60,073 nucleotides of DNA from Dimargaris cristalligena. Taxonomy: Eukaryota. The notes beneath the pieces are model-generated. The model was not told the DNA's origin and ran no database searches. It saw only the letters and a program-made list of their open reading frames with translations. Of the stretch, positions 26,719-43,179 are shown piece after piece (positions within the stretch are counted from its first letter, which is position 1; each line of letters starts with the position of its first letter). A program made the position numbers and the translations under genes. The stretch is taken from assembly GCA_003614675.1 (NCBI GenBank), contig ML002245.1, forward strand, positions 1 to 60,073, read 5' to 3'.

Positions 26719-28303
26719 ATGGTCCAATTTGCCGTCATTTGCGCCAGTAACCAGAATCGGAGTATGGAGGGTCATCATGTCCTCAATCAGCGTGGCTTCG
26801 ACGTTCATTCCTACGGGACAGGCAGTATGGTGCGACTACCCGGCGCATCAGCCGATAACCCCAACGTCTTTGACTTTGGTACCCCCTATACTGAAATATA
26901 CGCCAAATTGAAAGCCCGGGATAGTGAATTGTAAGTGTCCCAGCCTATTTTCAGCCGAATACCGCGCCTCCTTCACAATCGCGTGTAACCCCCTCCCCCC
27001 CATATATGTAGCACCCTTCATTATGGGGCCCACTACTTCCAAGTGACGACTAAAGACCGATCTAAATTCACCAAGGTAGGGCCAGTAATGCCCTAAACTA
27101 GAGGCCACCTCGGCCACACACACTTACATACATACCCATTAGGTCATGCTAGTTAATCCGGGCCTGCCTGTCACTGATGGCCGCTAATCAATACTCATTA
27201 ATTTACCCGCCAATTATGTACACGCCTCGACCGACATGAATAACAGGTACACCCGGAACGGCCTCTTGTCGATGCTGGACCGCAATCAGAAGATCAAACT
27301 GGCGCCTGAACGCTTCCAGGATTCACAGATTACCTTTGATGTAATCATTACCTGCGAAGAACGGTGCTTCGATGCCGTCTGTGAAGGTAAACTACACGGG
27401 ATAGGGAGCGGCATATACTCCTCCTCTCCCACACCTACCCTCCCATTTGCCCTTCACCCATACCCCCCTGTACAGATGCACTAAACACGTGTAGGGATTT
27501 AACATCCTATCACCTTCCACCCACGCATCTATATCGTGAACCCCAGTCGCTGCATCTGGATATTGATTCGCACTGGGAAGGGAAAAGAGATAACCGAAAG
27601 TAAGGGGGTTGGGTTGGGTATGATGTACCCATACCTCCTTGGTGGTCTACAGCTATTTTTTTAAGCAGGCCTACAGACGGTTATTCTAACCTTCTAGCCC
27701 GACTCGGGTTAAATTTTGGCATTACATTATTACTATGGAACCCCCTTTACGTCTCGTCTACCCATGCCCCCTAGAACTTACTAGCCGGGGATCCCCGTTC
27801 TGCAAGCGGGTCCACGTTATCAATGTGGCCATTAACGATAATCACAAGGATGCATCAATCGGTGGGAAAGTCATTCTGGAACTGGCCGAAAAGGTAGGCA
27901 ATCTATGTACAGGGCAAAATTTGGCCCATCGACTGCAACGGGTTCTATTATTTGTGGGTTAGATCCGCCGGTTTCCTCTCCCGCCCTCATGACCAGGTGG
28001 GCTTGTATATATCCGGACTTGGCTTTAGCTTGGCATGAAAGTGTGTGGGGAGGGTGCCAGTATAATGGAAGAGCGTTCTTTTGGAAGGCCAAATGTTTAA
28101 ACCGATGACTAATCCCCCGCCCCGACCAATTGTGTGACTGTTCCTGCTTGGCCCATACCTATCTATACGTATTATCATCCCCCTTACCTCTTTTGTTGTA
28201 GATGGAGGCTGCAGAAGACCTGGATCAAGAAATTGAGCCCATTGTGGAAAAGGTACAGGCCCAGACTCCCCATTCCTTGCTATATTCCGTCTGTTACTAT
28301 TAA
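26719..28303 (+). CDS. SSU72: RNA polymerase II CTD phosphatase Ssu72, ~190 aa, 4 exons
   Basis: Exons 26719-26930, 27247-27386, 27775-27893 and 28202-28303. CX5R motif [13 protein letters not shown], plus [25 protein letters not shown] and INDNHKDA. Confidence 0.95.
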
Positions 28304-31117
28304 TCGGCATTGTGTCAGATATAAATCCACTGTAAAAACTTGAGCTCCGAGTACCCTGGATTACTATTTTATTTTAAGTTTGGTCCAAGGTATTTCTCAC
28401 ACCACGAGACAGGGGAGAGGGGGATGGTGGCCAATGTCGAACAATGCGGTTTATATGGAAGGGGTGGTCATTTGAGTGCGGCGGCTCGGCGTGGGACGGC
28501 GCTATTACCTTAGGCCCAGGGTGAGGGGACATTGTGACATTCCATGATTATTCGTTCCGGTCCGCTGGTGGAGTTAGGCCCCTCCCTGGCCTTAAGCGCG
28601 ATACCCACGCCCCGGGTCGGCTTTACTACCCTATAACCTAAAGTGGGTTGACGTCCAAGGGCGATGGTGCATTCCAGACGTGGTTCAGCTGACTCACACG
28701 ACCATTCTCCCCCCGTTTGACCCACAGCCATGTCCCTGGAACTTGGACACTTCTAACCTGCCAAACTATAGACCGCTAGGTGGGTGGCTGGATTGGGTTG
28801 GGGTGTGTTGTGTGTGCAACTATTGCAATATACTATAATGCCGGGTTGTCGAAAATGCAAGGAGGAGGAATAGGAAGTGCCCCTCCCGGCCTTCGCTTTA
28901 CCCTGTGCATTTGCTTATTCGGGGAGTGTATGGCTCTCCAAACATCAGCAGCACCCAACCTCAAGTGCCAACGTTGCCCCACCTGTCTGTTTTTAGTATT
29001 ATTATATTGTTTATTGCAGCCCTTCACTATGTTATGTTAAAAAAGGGACCGGTAGTCAGGGGATATGAGGAAAAAAAAGATCCGCCAAGTAACCTCTCCG
29101 ACATTGCTGCTGTACTAACCAGCCTATGTATTACTCACCCATCCAAGCCTCCTCCCCCTGGTTTCTTTAGCCTTTGGTCTAGCAAGATAGACCCGGCTGT
29201 TTAAAGAGGCGGGTTTCTTTAGGCTGGTTTATATTTTCTAGTTACCCTAGCACGCTGTTTTTATTTTTGAATCCCGAGGACATGGAGGACGAAGGGTATT
29301 CAATATACCCCCCATCCCAATACCTTTGAATTCTAAAATAAAAGGCCCTGGTAGTGTTAGGACTACGCCCCACCGGAAATAGCGGAGGGAAACATCTATT
29401 TTTATCCCGTGGCGGATTATATCTGAATACTGGATGTTTCAAAGATTACAATGGGGCCGTCGTCTCAGCTGACCGATAGACATCAAAGAAAGGACAAGCC
29501 CTTCGATAGCATCGGTTCATCCATCCAGTGCCCGCCGCCCCCATTTTTATCGCTGTGCTATTTTTGGACCACATCTCCCTGTTAATTGTTCATGTGGACT
29601 TACTACAGTACCCCCAGATCCCAAGCCCCCTCCACCTCCCATCTATATTGGCAATGTATTTGGCGACTGTGGGGGTTGTATTGGAAGGTAAATGAGTATG
29701 GGAGAGAAGGTGAGAGGAGAAGAGAGGTGAGGAGGGAAGGGGGGATGACGGCGTTGAGTAAAATTGAGAAGAATAGAGTAGATCAGCCGACGGCGAGAAA
29801 AATGCGAAATGGTCTAATAATAGTACGGAGGGGGACTATCCCGAGTCATTGGGGGAGTAATCATAGAACAAAGGAACCAAGGGTGAGCGAAAAGGACCGG
29901 AGGAAGGAGAAGAGAAGGGAAAAGGAAAGAGTAGGCGAGGGGGAGATGGGGGGGGGGGGAAAGGTATCACATGGAATATATTATTAAATTAAGCGCAACC
30001 ACCACTATTGAATGATTCAAATTGATTTTCGGCATGAAACGGGCATGATTGCGGAAGATAGGGAGAGGGGAAATGAAAGAAACTCCTTGCCATGATCGGT
30101 TAAAAATAGGTTATGGAAAATCAGCCCAGCCATAGCCGAAATAGAGGCACTTCAAGAACTTTTTTTAAATCAGTTAATCTACGGGATATCACACGCTGAT
30201 CCTTGGGCTAGGAAATCTAAATGAAAAGTCCGCCGGCGTCCTAGGGTAATCCGGGGCCATTGCACCTGGGGGTTGAAGAACCGCCTGGTTTAAATTACGA
30301 TTACTTGACGACACTGCAGTAGCCTCATCACCTCTATACTTGCTATTCGCCACCATCCCGAAGTAATAATCATAATACTAATAAAAGAAATGATAGTGAT
30401 TCGGTAAAGGAACGAATAGGAGAGAACAACCACGCCATTAATCGGACACCGCTGTACATTCTAGAGAGAGCCACTGACCACTGACTGGCCTATCCATTTA
30501 TTTAGTATACACGTTCACTCTCGCGAACTTGGCACAGTCTGAGCCTCACAGCCGGCTATGAAATTAGGATATATGGCGAAAACACTTCATATTTCTGGAT
30601 GATGAGCCTCGGTAGAGAGTGCTTCTTTGATATTAGCGCAGGACTATTCTCCTTCGTTGGAAGGAGTTGTTTGACGTTTGCTCAGTGTGGTTTCAGGTCG
30701 CAGATGCAGCGCGCCGAAGGACACCGCTTGGATTACCCCTCCCTTGGAATCATCCATAACAATAACACAATAGCCCTCGGATTTGCAGTGGCTTTCTAGC
30801 AGTGGGTCCATGACGGAGCGAGCACAGTAGAGCACTAACGGGCTCAGTCGTGGCGGGGGTGGGGGAGTAGTGGTAGGGTAGATGTGCGTGCGCGTATATG
30901 TGTATGTGGAATAGGGGAGCTTGACACCCACAGCCAAACTAGCTGGGTTACATGCAGATTCAGGTGTATGAGAGGGTAAATGGGAGAGCCGGACTGTATG
31001 AGTGGGGGGAGGTAGTCAGTGAGAAGCCAGAGACATTTTCCCTCACCCCACGGGGAGACGGCCAATCCCTTTCTCCTGGATCTACCATGTTATTCCATAC
31101 TAAAATATAATAAATGT

Positions 31118-31142
31118 TATATATATATATATATATATATAT
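31118..31142. repeat. (TA)n microsatellite
   Basis: About 12 TA units. Confidence 0.9.
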
Positions 31143-33757
31143 TCAAGTGTAATCAATAATACACACTCGGCAGTGGCACCTTGAGGAGCCGTTGGGCATG
31201 GATTTCATTACCATTTTCATTTTCATATAGATATACATTTTTTTCATTGGACATTAAGTTGGCACCCCGTCCATCATTGGAAATGACAACGGCCTGCGTT
31301 GTTTTGATTTGATTTCTCGTTAGGCTGTCAACTCGCCATGTCCAGTTTCTGAAGACGACAGGGATCCCTTCTCAGGATAGACAGAGAACGACGAGGGTGA
31401 TTCGCCAAATATTTACCGAGAGTTCCCGTCGCTACGTAAAGAGAGAGAGAGAGAGAGATATCGAGAAGGCTTCGCCCAGCGGTAGCTTCGATTGGCGAAG
31501 GAGGAGGGCAAGTCGAACGAACCCATTGGTGGGTTAACCCTGCCAATATATTGCTAGCCCCTGGCAAAATCATAACAACTATTGCCCTATTCTGGTCTGT
31601 TTTGGTTATTTCCTAGCGCAGCTGTCCAAACCAAAATTAAGATCAGCTGGCGGAGTTATCCGTAGGGCAGCGGCCCTGACTGCCGGGCCTTGCATTAGTT
31701 GGAAGTCAAACGGAAAAGGCGGATCCGACCCATTGACGTACACCCGCACAGAGACAAGTCAACCGCAGGATGCAAAAATATTGGGATCGCTGCACCTTTA
31801 TTACGGATACCGCACACAATTAGCCACCCCCCCCCCCCCTTTGTCGCTGTGGGGGAAAGGTCGCGGTTCTGTATTTTATTCATGAAGCACAAAGGCTGTT
31901 CATATTCTAGACTCACCCCTTCGACTACTACTAATACTAATACGCTCCTTAGTATTGGGGACGGAGAGTGCATGAGATCATTAGCAATTAAGGGGGAATA
32001 GACGAGTGAACTGAACTGAACGGAGCCGAAATGCAATAAAATGAAGTGGAGAAGGAATAAGGCTGCTTGTGACCGTATGCGCCAGATACTTTGGCGCCAA
32101 TTGAGCAGCCGTCGCGGCAGCTGAATCTGCAGGAGATAATGAAGAGAAAGTGGCTGCTGGTGACCCTCACACTGCGGGAAGGGTGCCGGAAGGAGCACTC
32201 CGTTGGGTTTTTTCAGAACCAGTGGTTAGAATACTGGGCTGGGACCACCCACCCCTCAACAATTCCATATGAGCCAATTCCCGAAATAGAGCCCAGCTTA
32301 GGGCCAGAGTGTGTATATGCGGGGAAAATAAACTAGCTGCATTCATGCGGCTGGCCTGTACATATAAAGCCCGGGCGTTGGCCTGTCCTCGTTTTTCCCT
32401 GTTCTATTGCCTACCACCACCCTTGATTATTAGTATCGGTACTTACGACTCCTTCCCCTGCTATTTCCACTACTACTACTTCCATTATTATTATTACTAC
32501 TACTCTTATTAATTCGTTGTTCGACTCCATCGGCCACCACGTATCCATCTGCTTCGTCTTCGTATTCGTTTTTGCAGTTTAATTCTCCATCGTTCGTCAT
32601 TTGAGAAAGTCCTGATTGTCCACCCCCCATCGACTATCCCGCATACATTGTTCTCTTCGAAAACAAAGGTATTTAACTGATCCACCCTCCGTATTTGCGC
32701 TCCCCACTTCTCTCTCTCTCTCTCCTTCTCTCCTCTTCACTGCGTGGTTTGATTGTACCTAGTCCTATTGTCCCTCTTCCCCCTTCCTCACCAATTATTC
32801 ACCCCCCGCACTGTGTCACCTGTACAACCTATTGCTTTTAGGGAACACCTTTCCTTCGCCAAGCCTTCTTCGTATCTTTTTCCCATTCCACAAGGTAAGC
32901 CCCGCTCCAGCCTGCCCTGTTCGCCATGTAGAGGCCTTTTTCTTTTCATTTCAATATCATCAATCCATACAACCTCAGGCAGTGGTGGTTCTTAATTCAC
33001 TTTCCTCTCTATCCAAATCCTTTATTATTGAGGGGTGGGGTTAAAAGAGAGGACCCCTTGTATTGCGGGGCGGCCAAGGAAAGAGCCAATGATGGTAAAT
33101 AAATATATGCAGTTTACTAACTGCATATATTCAGTCCTTTCGCCACCCCTGGAATAACCATCTGCTGCAGCTACTCCGTGCTCATGGCCCGATTGAGCGA
33201 ATGCCAAAATTGGAGTATATGCCAACCATATCCCCTATTTTGTTGTGATGGATGTGGAGAGAGAAAGGGAGGGGGGCATGGTAAATACCTACAATTGGGC
33301 TCTCTGCCTAGGGAGATTGGTTTTCCGTCCACTCTATCTATTTGCGGCCCACAGTCATATCGGGTGCCGGATAATAGCAAGGATTGCCCCTGTGAATTAC
33401 CACTGCCGATTGTCTGCGCAACCCGATGCCTATCCCTCTCCTTCCCTTGCTCTTCCTTTTGATTGGGATGTTTTTTGGACATGTAGCCCTCAGGATTGCC
33501 CCATTCATATATATACTTCGGTCCATGGCCGCCTCACTCCATCGCTTGACCTATTTGGTTTTACTCCCTATTATTGCAGTGAAACTCCCTTGACTCCAAT
33601 ATCTGTTTTTTTTGTTATATACCTATGTAGAGAAAGTAGTTAGTTTCTGTCCTTATTCGTTTCCGTAACTCACCAACTCATCAATCCCTCTATTTCACTT
33701 TATACACATATCGGTGCTATCTATTCCGCACTGCGCTACCTCCTACCCTATCTCATA

Positions 33758-34579
33758 ATGACAGTCAAAATGACCTTCGCTGGCCTGTTCACATCTTGCC
33801 TGGGCTACGTCCCCAACATGGACCAAAGGGGCCTTCCCTCTTCTCTCCCTCACAAGCGGAAGCGTTCGTCGCGGAACTCCAAACATAATGTGCGCAAGCT
33901 GGTTATCAGTGCCCCTACCAACTTCCGGGTAAATGTCTAATATTTTGTTGAGTTCATTTCTTATTGCAGTCCCTCTGTGCTATTATTTAACAAATGGGGG
34001 AGATGGTGGATCTTCACCACCATCTGCTTTTTGGCACATCCATCCCCTCCAAATTTACGCTCACATATTTTGCTTAACCGATGATCCCTCCCCCCCGCTG
34101 TTGGTCACGCTATCACCGCCTATAAGCACTGCTATTTTTTTATATTAACGAATCATAATGTCCATGTATTCTATATTTCTGCCGATGTCATATACCTTGT
34201 ATCTAGCATACCACTCATATGGGTAAGTAACTGATACATCGCCTCTCTTATTCAAATTTGCATCTAGGGAGAGTATCCACCTATTCGAGATACATTATCA
34301 ATCGTATTTCCCAACTGGTATTGACCTATTTGAATGTCTCCCCTTGGCTTTTGCTTATAATCATTAGGTATTGGTGGCTTGAGTACCGTAGCGCCCCAGG
34401 AAATGACCCATGGGTACGAATCGATCCCCAATAACCCCCACGACGACCTCTCCTTTTCCCCGCCTCTTTACCCTTGTAAACGGATGTCCTTACGACCTTC
34501 ATTGGGTTCGTCATCAATCGATCTCCCTGCTTCACACATGACTTACAAAGTACCCCAACAACCGCTCAACCTCTATTGA
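33758..34579 (+). CDS. Small CRIB-motif protein (SPEC/CDC42SE-like Cdc42/Rac effector), ~132 aa, 3 exons including a 16-nt microexon
   Basis: Exons 33758-33928, 34207-34222 and 34368-34579 join in frame to give ...KRKRSSRNSKHNVRKLVISAPTNFR|HTTHMG|IGG..., a complete CRIB consensus (ISxPxxFxHxxHxG). Confidence 0.85.
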
Positions 34580-36296: not shown

Positions 36297-37794
36297 CTAT
36301 ACGGCCATACTCGCCCGAAGTTCTTCGAGTTCATCCTCTTCCTCCTTGCTGATTGACTGGTGCTTGTTGGTAATCTTGGTAGGGGCTGTCAGATGGAAGG
36401 AAATCAAAAAAAAATAAAGGAGGAGATGTGGGTATCATATATACCGAATTAATACACGGTTAAAAGGAAGAAAAGTGAGAGGTTAGAATAAAAATATTTA
36501 TATTAGTGACATATCCATAACCTGCCTATTAAAACTAGAGCAGGATTTAGTTGGTTTCCTAATGTATAATAATACCATATTAATAAGCAGTAACTTACCG
36601 GGCTCGGAAACGGCCACCTGTGGGGTTCGCACAGGCGGGTTTTCGGCATTAAGCAACTGTGAGTCGAGTTCGGCTTGTTCAAGCAACTCCAGTTCGTGAT
36701 TGAGTTCTTCCTCATCGAGATCAGTGCCGAATACGTTGGGCTGGGAAATGACTTCTGAGACCTCGTTGGCCAGGTCCATTTGTTCGCGAATCTCGTCCAT
36801 GGTGGCATCGACCTTGTCGGTATTCCTAATGGTGGAAGGGTATTAGTATAAATTAGATATTATAGTGGATATATATATATATATAGGTGATTACTGCGTT
36901 TAGTATACATGGTAAAATTGACCGAGTAGTTTGGCTAAACCGATGGCATTAAGTGGCGGACTGACTGGTGAGCATGGGTTGTGGCGCACTCAACAATTAT
37001 ACCATGAAAATCATTAAAAAAACAATCGGATTACGTACAGGTCCTTGTGGATAGTCTTCATGGCCTCAGCACCAGTGCGCATGGCATTCATGGTCTCCAG
37101 GTTGATATTGGCGCTTTCAATGGTCAGCACTTGGGTTTCGAGGGTTAGCCGAGAGCCCGCGATTTTTTCGATTTCAGCTTCATACTGCTTTTTCCGCTTG
37201 AGAGCGGCCAGAGCGGCTAAGAGGGGATATAATAGAGTAACCGTAGTATTTAGTAGAATAGATGGAGATACACATGGATAGGTTAGCTGGGATGCATGAA
37301 GACAGTAAGGGTAATTCCCGGAAATAAATATATGAATACGCTAGGGCTAGCACCCAGCAGCGACTTGGCAATACCAGGGAGGTGAGTAGTCTCATTCATT
37401 AGCTACCGACGATTCCCCCATTTGGGGGTATACTCGAGAGGGGAATCAGATGGGAGGGGGTAGGGTCAGCCGATGGGGATTACCAGGGCCACCCTAAACC
37501 ATCGATATATAGAGGGTGTGCATATAAAGGAATTCTAACCTCCCCCCATGTCGCTCGGGAATCCTCCACCTCCTATCGGCCCTGTTTTCTTTTTTTAAAA
37601 AATAATAATAAAATAACCTTTGACGTACCTCGCTTGTTCGTGGTGGCATTGAGCTTGGCGGCCTTGAGTTCATTATCGATACGAGTTTGGAGGAATGCCT
37701 CACGTTTCTCCAACATCAGCAAGTTCTCCCGAATCTTGACGATGGCGTCTTTGGGGGAAGCCTTGGGCTTCGAGCCGAAAAATAGTTTCATCAT
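36297..37794 (-). CDS. SNF7: ESCRT-III subunit Snf7/Vps32 (CHMP4), ~219 aa, 4 exons
   Basis: Exons 37794-37629, 37216-37039, 36825-36599 and 36385-36297. Motifs PKDAIVKIRE..MLEKRE, ALAALKRKKQYE, KVDATMDEIREQ, DEEEL and C-terminal EELRASMA. Confidence 0.95.
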
Positions 37795-38953: not shown

Positions 38954-40325
38954 CTAAAATATGTTTTGGTGCACCCGACTTTCGTCACCGGGTACTTTAT
39001 GGTCCGCCATATTGGGCTTGAGCTCGTACACCGTAAGCAGAGGTTCGTCGCGCAGCTAAATCGGCATTAGATTATAAGATTGGATATACGATCAGTCAGT
39101 AATAGTTCCACACATTAAGCAAGTCTATACATGAATATATAAACAGTGTACTCTTTCAATGGCTGATCCGTCATCAACCCAGTGAAGACGCTGCTGAATT
39201 GACAGGGGGTAGAAGTGATAGAACGCAGATGGTGACTATTAAGAGCATGTTCAGTAATCAGAAAACCGTAATTACCTCCGTCCATTCGCCCGTAAGGCCA
39301 ATATACTGCAGTCGGGTGGTGTCTTCGCCAAAGTTCTCAGGGAAATACAGGGTCAAACTCCGAACGTTTCCGAACTTCGTGATCCGGGTGTGGTATTCCA
39401 CCACATCTTTACCGGAATCCTCAATTAGATCCCATTCCTGGGTGCAGGTGCGATCCTCGACATTGTCGAAGTCAATGTCATCGGAGTTGATAAACCTATA
39501 GGCCGTTGGGGGAGATGGAGTATTAGTGAATTACCGACATGGCCCAGCAGTATCGAGTATTATAATTGAAGGTGTTAGATAAATATTCGGACTGCCCGGC
39601 GAATTAGGTGTTTGTAGCTGCGCCCCATCAGTCGAAATTATAAGCGAATCTATCAATGAATCGGGGTTTTATGCCGACCAATGTTCAATCCACCAAAGTA
39701 CTCGGAACGTTCGTTTGGCAAGTGTGGGCGGAGGGGGGGAGGTGGTCCTCTACTTACACTTTGAGTTTGGCAGGCGACTGGGCGCCGGGTCCACCGATGA
39801 GCAAGATGGATTTGATTTTGGCCATGCCGGTTAGACTATCCCAGTAATCGTCGGAAATTGCGGTGCAGTTTATATTATCAAAAATCGCCCATGCGCGGGT
39901 AATTTTAGTGATGAACCATGGTTAGTGTCTACTATATAATACCTCTTTCATAGTGTAGAGTCCCCAAGGGACGCCGCGTAGGAAGGAGGGTGGGTAAAAT
40001 ACAACCGAGCGCAGGGAAGGGGGACTTACGGAATGAAAACGATCAGTTGCTCGTCGCAGTCGCTTTCCAAACACGGGGTGCGCTCTTTACGCTGGTGCCA
40101 CGGTTTGATGATCCCCTTAGCTGCGCCGGTATCACTTTCGTTGTACCCGCGGACGTTGTCAATGTCGATTTTACTGTACAGGGAGTCTTTGAGGGCGGGT
40201 TCGAGATCATGACTGTGGTCGTGGTCGTGGTCATGGCCATGCCCATGTCCGTGGCTATGACTATGGCCACGGGAGCCCGAGGGCTGGTAGTCGCTCGGAC
40301 CGGCTTCACCCTGACAGGAACTCAT
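38954..40325 (-). CDS. PITHD1: PITH domain-containing protein 1, ~231 aa, 4 exons
   Basis: Exons 40325-40030, 39835-39758, 39495-39276 and 39055-38954. His-rich N-terminus, SLYSKID, LESDCDEQL, EYHTRITKF, YIGLTGEW and VYELKPNMADHK. Confidence 0.9.
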
Positions 40326-41352
40326 TAGCGAAATAAGTGGCGGGGGTGGGAGACTCGAGGGAGAAGAAGGCGGGTGGGTGGGGGGTATTGGCGTAGGTTT
40401 TATCGGCCAAGTCAAAATAGGAATATGTTAACCGAGTAAAAAATCCAATGAATAGACTGAATGGCCAAAATGGGAAATGTGCTATATAAATGGTGGAATG
40501 AAGAGTATCGAAGTTCTGCTGAAAGAGCAAACTACAATACAAGAAGGAGTGAGTTAAATGAGTAGTATGAGTTTAAGGTTCATGTGAGTTAAGGAAAGTA
40601 AAGTTTGGGTTGTCCCTTCCAATTCAACCCTATACCTCCAATTATCATTCCCATTCCCGTTCTCTTCTTTCCCAGGGCCTACACCACCAGACCAGCTCAA
40701 ATTCAACTTGGGTTAGGTGTGTGGATGCTAACATCATGTAGACCGTGGCTACTACTACTTTACTATAAAGACTTGCGTTACGCGGGTCTTATTGGTAAGG
40801 TTCGAAGCTGCTGGAGAGGATTGGTGGTCCGCAAGCGTATTTAATTTGTATGAATTGCGCCAACCGCGCACATTAATAGTCCAGTGACGTGGATCAAACT
40901 ATACTTGTCAGGAATAATAGGCCCTATCCTATGTGCCATTCTCCCTGGTATAGCTTGTATTTATGAAGCTATTTTCCTAAGGAAAACAGCTGACTTGGAG
41001 CTGTATTCTGAAAAGATTTATTGAATATCCACATTATATTATGTAGTCTATAGTACGGCGGGGTACTGCTATGACTCTCCTCCCCTCATTCTTTGGTTCA
41101 AAAATTCGAAATAGTTGTTAGAAGGGGAGGGGGCTCTTCCAAGTAGTATTCGCGACTTCTAAAATGCCATACGATGGTGCATGTCACTTCTGTGGGGTCG
41201 ATCATAGAGGACTTGTGAATTAAGAGTGGTTGGTGGTGGGCCTTTCCGTAGTTGTACCGCTAGAAACCACCAGCCCATAATAAACCTACGCACCCTCCCT
41301 TTTCTCCTAGTATATCTATCTCATCTAACCCTCCTCTCTCCTCCTCCGTTAT

Positions 41353-43179
41353 CTACAACCGACTTTTAATCCACGACGTCCATTTCGACTTCTGCTTCTG
41401 TTCCTGTTCCTGTTCGTCCATGACCGCCAGGGCCATTCCCATAATTTCCTGGAACGCCGCCGCATAAGTCTGGGCCTGGGCCGACGACGCCTGCTTTTTG
41501 GCCACCCGGGCCGCAATCCCCTGGGTAATTACCGCCAGCCGGAAAAACCCAAACGCCACATTAAAGGACCAATGGTCCCGCACGGCGGGGAGGTGGGTCA
41601 AGGCCGTATACTGGTCAATCAACTCCCCCTCGGTCGGCAGGTCTTTGGTCCCCGCTTCAGCAGTGTTGGAGGAAGGGGGAGCATTCCGGTAGCCGCGCAG
41701 GAAAGCGGGACCAGTGCGGTAATCACAGCGGTAAGGTTGGAGCAAGTTGGCCAAGTCGGAGAGGGGATGACCGAGGGTCGATAATTCCCAGTCGAGAATG
41801 CCAATGATGCGCGGTTCGGTGGGGTGAAACACGAGGTTATCCATTTTGAAATCACCGTGCACTAGCGTGGTGGCGTCGGGACCGGAATGTGCGAGCATCC
41901 AGTCAATGAATTCGGTGAGGCGGTGTAAATCACCCACGGACTGGCCGGGGTGGCGGGGATCCGGGACCCGGCCTTGGACGCGGGACAGTTTGGCGAGCGA
42001 TTGCAGTTGGCGTTCGTAAAAATGGGCGGGGCGCCCGTAATCGCTGAGTCCGATGGCCCGGTAGTCGACCCGGTGGAATTTGGCTAAAGTGCGGACGGCT
42101 TCACGCCAGTACAACCCGCGTTCGGCCGATGGAATAGTAGGGAGATGAAAGTCGCTGAAAATGCGGCCTTCGAGGAACTCCATAACCTATTAGATAAATG
42201 AATGAATAAGTGAATGCATAGGAGAGGGGGGAGACAAATACAGCCACGATGGAGTTAATTAAAGGGCTCACCAACGAATACCTATAATTATTGAAAATGG
42301 CCGTATTAAAACCCCAATCTACTGGATGTGATTTTTAGGCCCTGCAGCCAACTTGATATATAAAATGGGCATTTACATAGAACGGGGTACCGATCACGCC
42401 AATATCTTCGCATAAGCAATACACCTTGGGCACGGGCACGTCGGTATGTTGGCCCAGGGCACTCAAAATCCGGTATTCCCGCTCGATGGCATGGGCGCTC
42501 TTGGTCAACAGGGTGCCGGCCGGCTTCTTGCGGAGCACGTACTTGCGGTCGCTGGCGTCCTGGATCAAGTAGGTGGGGTTGCTTTGGCCAAGGTTGAACT
42601 GCCGGATTGCCAACGGGGCGCGCATTTGGCGGACCTGACTGGCCAGGTAGGCTTCGAGAGGGCGGAGGTCGATTTCATGGCTGAAAGGGTATAAGATGAG
42701 ATGAGGTGAAACGAGGTGGTGGGGGTTAGGGAGAATTAACGGCCAGTATGAGGAACATGAAGTTCGTAGTTAGCACCTGGTCGTGTCAGTAAAGATGTTC
42801 CAACGTTTGTGAATAAAATAATATACCCCAGCTAACCCATATGTGGGAGGGTTATTCGGGTGGCCAACTGGTGGAGGCGCTTATAAAATAGAAGCATAGT
42901 TTGGTGAGACTGTCTTATAGGCGCTCTACTGGCGGTATTAATTGGGCTAACACGGGGCAGGGGGGTATAGTCCTGGAAATGCCTAGTGGAAAACCCCGCT
43001 TCGGAAGGCTAAGAAATGAGGTAGTGGTCGCCTATTCCTGGGAGTACTGGAGGGCCAATTCCAGTGGGGGGAACTCTCACATTTACCATATCCCAGGAAC
43101 CCTTCTTACCCCACCCCACGTACACCATTGGGGAAACTTACCCCGCTCGAACCGAAGAGGTGGTTTGTCCGTCGACCAT
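41353..43179 (-). CDS. APH/choline-kinase-like phosphotransferase resembling the ACAD10/11 kinase domain, stand-alone, with C-terminal PTS1 (SRL); ~391 aa, 3 exons
   Basis: Exons 43179-43142, 42680-42377 and 42186-41353. Motifs [33 protein letters not shown] and [14 protein letters not shown]; it ends in SRL*. Confidence 0.92.

Follow-up and report, generated by a model that had tools for sequence, protein, structure and literature searches.

A small CRIB-only protein of Dimargaris cristalligena, completed through a 16-nt exon, and its family of candidate Cdc42/Rac binders in Kickxellomycotina

On its forward strand, between positions 33758 and 34579, a contig of 60,073 nt from Dimargaris cristalligena, a fungus of the Kickxellomycotina (Dimargaritales), reads as a very small protein whose CRIB motif is pieced together across exon boundaries, one of the exons being only 16 nt long. 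This locus raises the question of whether such an assembly represents a real gene and, if so, whether its product belongs with the SPEC/CDC42SE effectors of animals, with larger fungal CRIB proteins such as Gic or PAK, or with neither of them. The whole contig was analysed and is called the window in the following. We consider it likely that a genuine gene of three exons, standing on its own, occupies the locus and encodes a small CRIB-only protein, and this protein is an already catalogued, though unstudied, member of a family of small CRIB-only proteins in Kickxellomycotina.

Joining the plus-strand exons 33758-33928, 34207-34222 and 34368-34579 by script yields 399 nt and a protein of 132 amino acyl residues, the coordinates and motifs being those given in the initial annotation. 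Exon 1 (33758..33928) consists of 57 codons, is opened by the first ATG at 33758, ends in phase 0 with ...VISAPTNFR and carries a Cys motif, a basic patch and the first half of the CRIB motif. Intron 1 (33929..34206; 278 nt, GTAAAT...CTAG, phase 0) interrupts the CRIB motif between Phe-Arg and the first His. The microexon (34207..34222), situated between CTAG and GTAAGT, encodes His58-Thr-Thr-His61-Met and the first base of Gly63, and both CRIB histidines therefore do lie inside these 16 nt, as had been proposed. After intron 2 (34223..34367; 145 nt, GTAAGT...TTAG, phase 1), exon 3 (34368..34579) supplies the rest of Gly63, continues with IGGLSTVAPQ... and the C-terminal half, and closes with a TGA stop codon at 34577-34579. 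Both introns are of the GT-AG type, with donor CGG/GTAAAT and acceptor TCTAG/C for intron 1, and donor TGG/GTAAGT and acceptor ATTAG/G for intron 2. An alternative start at the second ATG (33770..33772, Met5), which stands in the context CAAAATG, gives a protein of 128 residues. Since Met5 is invariant in an alignment of four Dimargaritales sequences (the one from Dispira is left out of it) and four of five Dimargaritales models begin at the aligned residue, ATG 33770 may be, and probably is, the true start.

A search with exon 1 led to a public D. cristalligena protein (P0003) with which the spliced 132-residue product is letter-identical. It is recorded as KAJ1988960.1 (H4R33_002232), as RKP39772.1 (BJ085DRAFT_27813), and as UniRef100_A0A4Q0A314 under the name "CRIB domain-containing protein"; judging by their locus tags, the two identical public models are taken to stem from different annotation efforts. 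The gene is thus by no means hidden, as it had been called. The related expectation that gene callers would miss it fails for this gene, which is modelled in two public records, although for some of its relatives it seems to hold to some extent, as discussed below.

The protein combines three short elements, all encoded on the plus strand, with a longer C-terminal half. Near the N-terminus, the motif LFTSCLG (33785..33805, residues 10-16) includes Cys14, a candidate S-acylation site that may well be acylated. The basic patch KRKRSSRNSKHNVRK follows (33854..33898, residues 33-47), and within the 22 residues preceding the CRIB motif there are eight Lys or Arg residues and no Asp or Glu; KRKR is invariant in the four-sequence Dimargaritales alignment and also occurs in the fifth member, from Dispira. 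Both the Cys segment and the polybasic patch that had been noted are therefore present. The first CRIB half, ISAPTNFR (33905..33928, residues 50-57), is continued by the microexon and exon 3 to give ISAPTNFRHTTHMG. The CRIB consensus is I-S-x-P-x(2-4)-F-x-H-x-x-H-V-G, and all of its fixed positions are kept except for Val, which is replaced by Met, so that the motif, formerly described as perfect, is better called near-perfect. The Pfam PBD profile (PF00786) matches residues 50-66 with profile positions 2-18 of 59 at 23.4 bits, above the gathering cut-off of 21.3 bits, which is the result of the profile search that the initial annotation had recommended. PBD was the sole match in the Pfam scan of the 132-residue protein, which revealed no kinase or other domain, again in agreement with the earlier description. 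The C-terminal half contains the motif SPPLYPCKRMSLRP (34457..34498, residues 93-106), which is conserved in Dimargaritales and in which S93, P94, L96, P98, C99, K100, R101, S103 and P106 are invariant in the four-sequence alignment. It includes K-R-x-S, a site of the basophilic-kinase type, and one might guess that the Dimargaritales-specific SPxL[YH]PCKR[IML]S is a basophilic-kinase or docking site.

When the profile of the four Dimargaritales sequences was compared with proteins of known structure, 14 PDB chains were retrieved at E ≤10, all of them N-WASP or PAK CRIB chains, the best being N-WASP 6uhc_H (E 0.017), PAK4 5upk_A (0.032) and PAK1 1e0a_B (0.049). The D. cristalligena protein shares with the PBD of these PAK/WASP proteins, which provide its best solved-structure matches, the CRIB core I-S-x-P-x-x-F-x-H-x-x-H-x-G. 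Unlike them, it possesses no kinase, WH1 or VCA domain and corresponds only to the profile positions mentioned above, and after the second His it continues with G-I-G-G, as opposed to G-[FW]-D in the N-WASP, PAK4 and PAK1 chains.

Homologs along the full length of the protein exist in four further species of Dimargaritales, i.e., Tieghemiomyces parasiticus (P0004, 129 aa, 54% identity to P0003), Dispira parvispora (P0008, 132 aa, 47%), Dimargaris verticillata (P0005, 132 aa, 37-39%) and Dimargaris xerosporica (P0006, 143 aa, 37%), and they end at the alignment column of the D. cristalligena stop codon. With P0003 as the query, a phmmer search of 1.84 billion representatives yielded 11 matches at E ≤0.001. 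The fungal ones were three Dimargaritales proteins and P0016 from Coemansia reversa, which aligns from the Cys motif through the CRIB motif (E 4.4e-4, residues 8-68). The other seven comprised six proteins with repeated CRIB motifs, aligned at the CRIB motif alone, and P0014, a protein of 1254 residues that contains no CRIB motif and aligns to query residues 6-29 only. The six multi-CRIB proteins (P0009-P0013 and P0015), the best non-fungal matches, are long and carry three to eight CRIB repeats (...MIGPPTNFQHV.HVG...); two of them have crustacean source names (Homarus and Chionoecetes) and another comes from Logan assemblies. We know of no description of such an architecture.

A profile search added proteins of 66-118 residues from Coemansia spp., Linderina and Kickxella, the matches from these genera outside the query profile having E values of 4.5e-9 to 2.6e-5, and the shortest models in this size range being partial or probably misread. 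The resulting family alignment contains 21 sequences, five from Dimargaritales and 16 from Kickxellales. Its invariant columns are C14, G16, K47, I50, P53 and F56, and L10, F11, S13, N55, H58, T59, H61 and G63 are conserved in at least 90% of the sequences. The Cys motif [LF][LF][STL][SA]C[LF]G is found in all 21 members, a full CRIB motif in 19 of the 21, and Pfam PBD matches 19 of the 21. In 14 of the 16 Kickxellales proteins, and in none of the five from Dimargaritales, the chain begins with Met-Gly and continues with LF[ST][SA]C, which is an N-terminus of the myristoylation-plus-palmitoylation type. The basic patch is weaker in Kickxellales, with three to five Lys or Arg residues in the 22 positions before the CRIB motif, compared with eight or nine in Dimargaritales. 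Neither the phmmer nor the profile searches, whose reach is limited, found members outside Kickxellomycotina (Dimargaritales and Kickxellales), and a restriction of the family to this subphylum is to be regarded as provisional. In addition, 13 of the 21 members have a C-terminal Cys, mostly in the form ...VG[VM]AC and as ...MC in two Dimargaris species, and D. cristalligena ends with ...LNLY; this Cys might offer a further site for lipidation or act as a signal of another kind.

Is the gene real, and is the 16-nt exon part of it? In the six frames of the window HxxH[VILMC]G occurs four times, and one of these occurrences is the microexon, which follows the ISAPTNFR half on the same strand at a distance of 278 nt. 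Between exons 1 and 3 there are eight candidate internal exons that are flanked by AG and GT, restore the frame and are free of stop codons, and 34207-34222 alone among them supplies HTTH[MC]G, invariant in all five Dimargaritales proteins. The assembly of the CRIB motif via the microexon exceeds chance. An annotation artefact, in which a chance open reading frame (ORF) that is never expressed had been stitched together by gene callers, might be suspected, as low-coverage genomes of this kind were annotated ab initio. Yet a chance ORF is rejected by the full-length conservation in the four other Dimargaritales species at 37-54% identity, with the motifs kept and the ends coinciding, and by the uniqueness of the frame-fitting His exon; moreover, the same model appears in both public records and the second CRIB half is placed precisely between splice signals and in the right frame. 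We therefore regard an artefact as extremely unlikely. Another candidate, that the exons belong to a larger gene of the PAK/WASP type with more exons downstream, a scenario for which the initial annotation had provided, was checked and is ruled out: PBD is the only domain, the stop codon is flush with the ends of the homologs, and the next gene downstream is convergent. This gene (36498..37792, minus strand) codes for an Snf7 (ESCRT-III) protein, with Pfam Snf7 matches of 2e-14 and 1.9e-15 on two exons, and forms the 3' border of the CRIB gene, from which we conclude that the latter stands alone. The Snf7 gene has at least three introns of about 200-415 nt with GTACGT or GTAAGT donors and TAG acceptors, and given this similarity the introns of the CRIB gene look typical for the genome.

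Protein models of relatives suggest that the intron splitting the CRIB motif is not peculiar to Dimargaris. Four public models of Coemansia spp. and Kickxella, compared as proteins, are informative in this respect. P0037 and P0038, both from Coemansia, keep IGAPSNFV, are devoid of the His half and break exactly where intron 1 of Dimargaris falls in the protein, and P0016 and P0030 diverge about 20 residues later with Asp-Val-Ser, which is what read-through of a GTnAGn donor would look like. From these patterns we infer that a phase-0 intron after NF[RV] seems to be common to Kickxellomycotina and that a small exon presumably carries the His half, its length being about 20 codons in Coemansia and 16 nt in Dimargaris. 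They also suggest that gene callers sometimes mishandle the small His exon in relatives, leading to mis-annotated models, and the lesson for annotation is that two of 21 public family models lack precisely the histidine half of the CRIB motif.

Whether the 16-nt exon could act as a switch is a separate matter. Joining exon 1 directly to exon 3 gives a 61-residue product ending in NFR-VLVA-stop, so that, as had been stated before, skipping does shift the frame and remove the CRIB motif; the stop comes after four extra codons. The unspliced exon 1 frame terminates after residue 60. On this basis the exon might be alternatively spliced as an on/off device, inclusion giving a Cdc42 binder and skipping giving the 61-residue product or a target for nonsense-mediated decay. 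Besides the length of 16 nt, which is not a multiple of three, a precedent from Trichoderma virens speaks for this possibility, namely the glucose-regulated 20-nt microexon of Xlr2, which according to PMC11121469 encodes key residues of the DNA-binding domain. The two cases resemble each other in that both are fungal, involve about 20 nt and concern key residues of a functional motif, but the regulation of the Trichoderma exon is described as proven by RNA-seq and isoform tests (PMC11121469), whereas the Dimargaris exon is known from sequence and is probably constitutive. Regulated microexons usually have a length divisible by three (PMC11121469), skipping would probably yield nothing but a product destined for degradation, and the idea of a switch comes from arithmetic. 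The splice sites of the two flanking introns are canonical and strong, and the residues encoded by the microexon are invariant in Dimargaritales. Taken together, the strong splice sites, the invariant residues and the frame-breaking length favor constitutive inclusion, which is the most likely behavior of the exon, and we judge regulated skipping to be very unlikely.

With regard to relationships, the closest parallel in design is offered by SPEC1 and SPEC2 (CDC42SE1 and CDC42SE2) of animals, which are described as having two N-terminal Cys residues, a phosphoinositide-binding basic region, a CRIB motif and a helical C-terminal region needed for efficient binding (PMC6406378; PMC8847673). Like the D. 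cristalligena protein, they are tiny, have the CRIB motif as their sole domain and arrange a hydrophobic Cys-containing N-terminus, a basic region and the CRIB motif in the same order (PMC6406378); the proposal that a Cys motif, a basic patch and a CRIB motif make up the SPEC layout agrees with this description, and the layout is conserved in the 21 Kickxellomycotina proteins. For the Coemansia member P0017 (Kickxellales), AlphaFold2 predicts a helix at residues 68-83 right after the CRIB motif, the best-scoring part of the model, which would add to the likeness. AlphaFold2 with the family alignment gave for P0003 a mean predicted local distance difference test score (pLDDT) of 55, a predicted template modelling score (pTM) of 0.13 and a single four-residue helix at 8-11; both models are of low confidence, and the 132-residue protein is predicted to be intrinsically disordered, as expected for a disordered protein of the CRIB type.

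These resemblances might mean that the family is truly orthologous to SPEC/CDC42SE, an ancestral small effector of opisthokonts that Kickxellomycotina have retained and Dikarya have lost. The common order of elements and the predicted post-CRIB helix of Kickxellales are in accordance with this, and CDC42 small effector clusters are among the nearest neighbors in an Atlas feature search, in which, by the tool's own bar, scores below 0.9 count as leads only. With the whole protein the CDC42 small effector cluster ranked third overall (0.84, 180 shared features); with residues 5-72, an unnamed 60-residue cluster with PBD on 16% of its members came first, followed among the named clusters by the CDC42 small effector at rank 2 and a "C4S2C protein (Fragment)", which we take to be of the SPEC type, at rank 3, both at 0.88 with 185 and 197 features, respectively. 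We also presume that the CRIB motif of SPEC closely resembles that of Kickxellales around the histidines, which again is a lead and not a test. On the other hand, all Atlas scores are below the bar, no SPEC protein was among the 11 phmmer matches, no sequence link to SPEC outside the CRIB motif was seen in that search, and the named non-fungal matches were multi-CRIB crustacean proteins aligned at this motif only. Two conserved Cys residues in SPEC (PMC6406378) contrast with one in the family (C14, in 21 of 21), which has no adjacent second Cys. SPEC proteins comprise 79 or 84 residues, compared with 128-132 in Dimargaritales and 66-118 in Kickxellales models; furthermore, the long C-terminal half of the Dimargaritales proteins has its own conserved motif and the Met-Gly start of Kickxellales is of a myristoylation type, features that set both groups apart from SPEC. 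No members were encountered outside Kickxellomycotina in searches of limited reach. Convergence is a serious alternative because the elements in common are without exception short linear motifs, which can arise convergently, plant RIC proteins being another small CRIB-only group. Orthology to SPEC is thus unlikely in our opinion. The wider proposition, that the family is an ancestral SPEC orthologue, that the CRIB-splitting intron is old and that the Dimargaris exon can be skipped to turn off Cdc42 binding, is even harder to defend and seems quite unlikely.

Another origin to be weighed is truncation or duplication of a larger fungal CRIB protein, Gic-like or a PAK N-terminus, with no relation to SPEC. 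Gic proteins exceed 300 residues, being several times longer than the D. cristalligena protein, and their C-terminal regions engage septins and the exocyst; a length of 132 residues alone argues against membership in Gic1/Gic2. Gic proteins are without an N-terminal lipidation motif, and no similarity to them was found outside the CRIB motif. What connects them with the present family is that Gic1 and Gic2 are fungal non-kinase effectors of Cdc42 in which a polybasic region that binds phosphatidylinositol 4,5-bisphosphate, PI(4,5)P2, accompanies the CRIB motif and permits coincidence detection of membrane and Cdc42, the polybasic region of Gic2 lying directly before its CRIB motif (PMC6449940). 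A scan of metagenomes with the family profile gave 206 pattern matches, of which six were confirmed, four PAK kinases and two copies of one small CRIB ORF, none of them providing DNA from a relative within Kickxellomycotina, and the PAK N-termini, in four of the six loci, have a basic stretch before KLVISPPSNF; together with the confinement of the family to one fungal subphylum in the searches made, this would fit a derivation from such a protein. However, similarity to PAK or Gic beyond the CRIB motif did not appear in any search, and the metagenome PAK loci examined contain nothing equivalent to the Cys motif conserved at the N-terminus of the family. A derivation by truncation therefore appears rather unlikely. 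Plant RIC proteins are likewise small CRIB-only adaptors without other domains, and the RIC4 cluster was the top Atlas structural row (residues 5-72) with a template modelling (TM) score of 0.42, which is under the bar; the structure rows were disregarded altogether, as all had TM values below 0.5 and the model is disordered. RIC proteins belong to the plant lineage, share no sequence link beyond the CRIB motif and, to our knowledge, have no conserved N-terminal Cys motif.

By analogy with SPEC1/2 and Gic2, an N-terminus open to lipidation, combined with the basic patch and the CRIB motif, would make a coincidence detector for membrane and active GTPase, and the D. cristalligena protein is probably a membrane-tethered binder of GTP-loaded Cdc42 or Rac. 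The N-terminal Cys motif would be lipidated, by S-acylation in Dimargaritales and by a combination of N-myristoyl-Gly and S-acyl-Cys in Kickxellales, the basic patch would bind acidic phosphoinositides, and the protein would consequently reside on the plasma membrane. There the CRIB motif might capture GTP-bound Cdc42 or Rac and locally buffer or scaffold polarity signaling, and the C-terminal SPxL[YH]PCKR[IML]S might serve for docking or phosphorylation. Such a logic would be that of animal SPEC/CDC42SE and of the polybasic-plus-CRIB module of yeast Gic2.

Several points weigh against this picture. Myristoylation requires a Gly2, which Dimargaritales proteins do not possess, and one Cys by itself anchors a protein less firmly. 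The PBD match covers the CRIB core and not the full GTPase-binding domain, so that affinity may be low, and the P0003 model shows no helix after the CRIB motif, a region of the kind that SPEC is said to need for efficient binding (PMC6406378). The splicing is deduced from sequence logic and homologs and not from transcripts. Low-coverage genomes of Kickxellomycotina were annotated with Funannotate, employing Augustus, GeneMark and SwissProt protein alignments without transcriptomes (PMC9866270); the H4R33 model is therefore an ab initio call, and agreement among models of this type is no evidence of expression. Finally, the missing His half of P0037 and P0038 could be real variation instead of an annotation error.

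Among small adaptors with a CRIB motif as their only domain, animals are represented by SPEC, yeasts by Gic and plants by RIC, and no description of any in early-diverging fungi was found in the literature searched. With a conserved, lipid-anchored mini-CRIB family, models of Cdc42-driven hyphal polarity in Kickxellomycotina would gain a further component. Such a family would also provide a test case for deciding whether SPEC-type effectors are older than the split between animals and fungi or originated several times from short motifs; should orthology to SPEC turn out to be true, the lipid-anchored mini-CRIB effector would be an ancestral opisthokont invention that was later lost in Dikarya.

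The small CRIB ORF from the metagenome scan (L003:2850-3250, with the same sequence at L004:914-1216) lies on a contig of 35% GC and codes for about 100 residues with the CRIB motif as its only domain (...RDVRKLVISAPSNFCHLQHVGYD...). Its CRIB motif is uninterrupted, an upstream short exon starting with Met-Gly is joined via an intron of the form GTGAGT...CAG, and the N-terminus is devoid of Cys; the ORF may represent a further small eukaryotic CRIB protein. In the window, the approximately 5.7 kb upstream of the CRIB gene (28000-33700) contain short open frames only, and the four that were tested had no Pfam match. Farther away, an Ssu72 exon is encoded on the plus strand (27188-27484, 9.5e-21), and the minus strand harbors a PITH domain exon (40029-40427, 4.4e-16) and an exon for an APH-family phosphotransferase (41356-42186, 1.3e-27).

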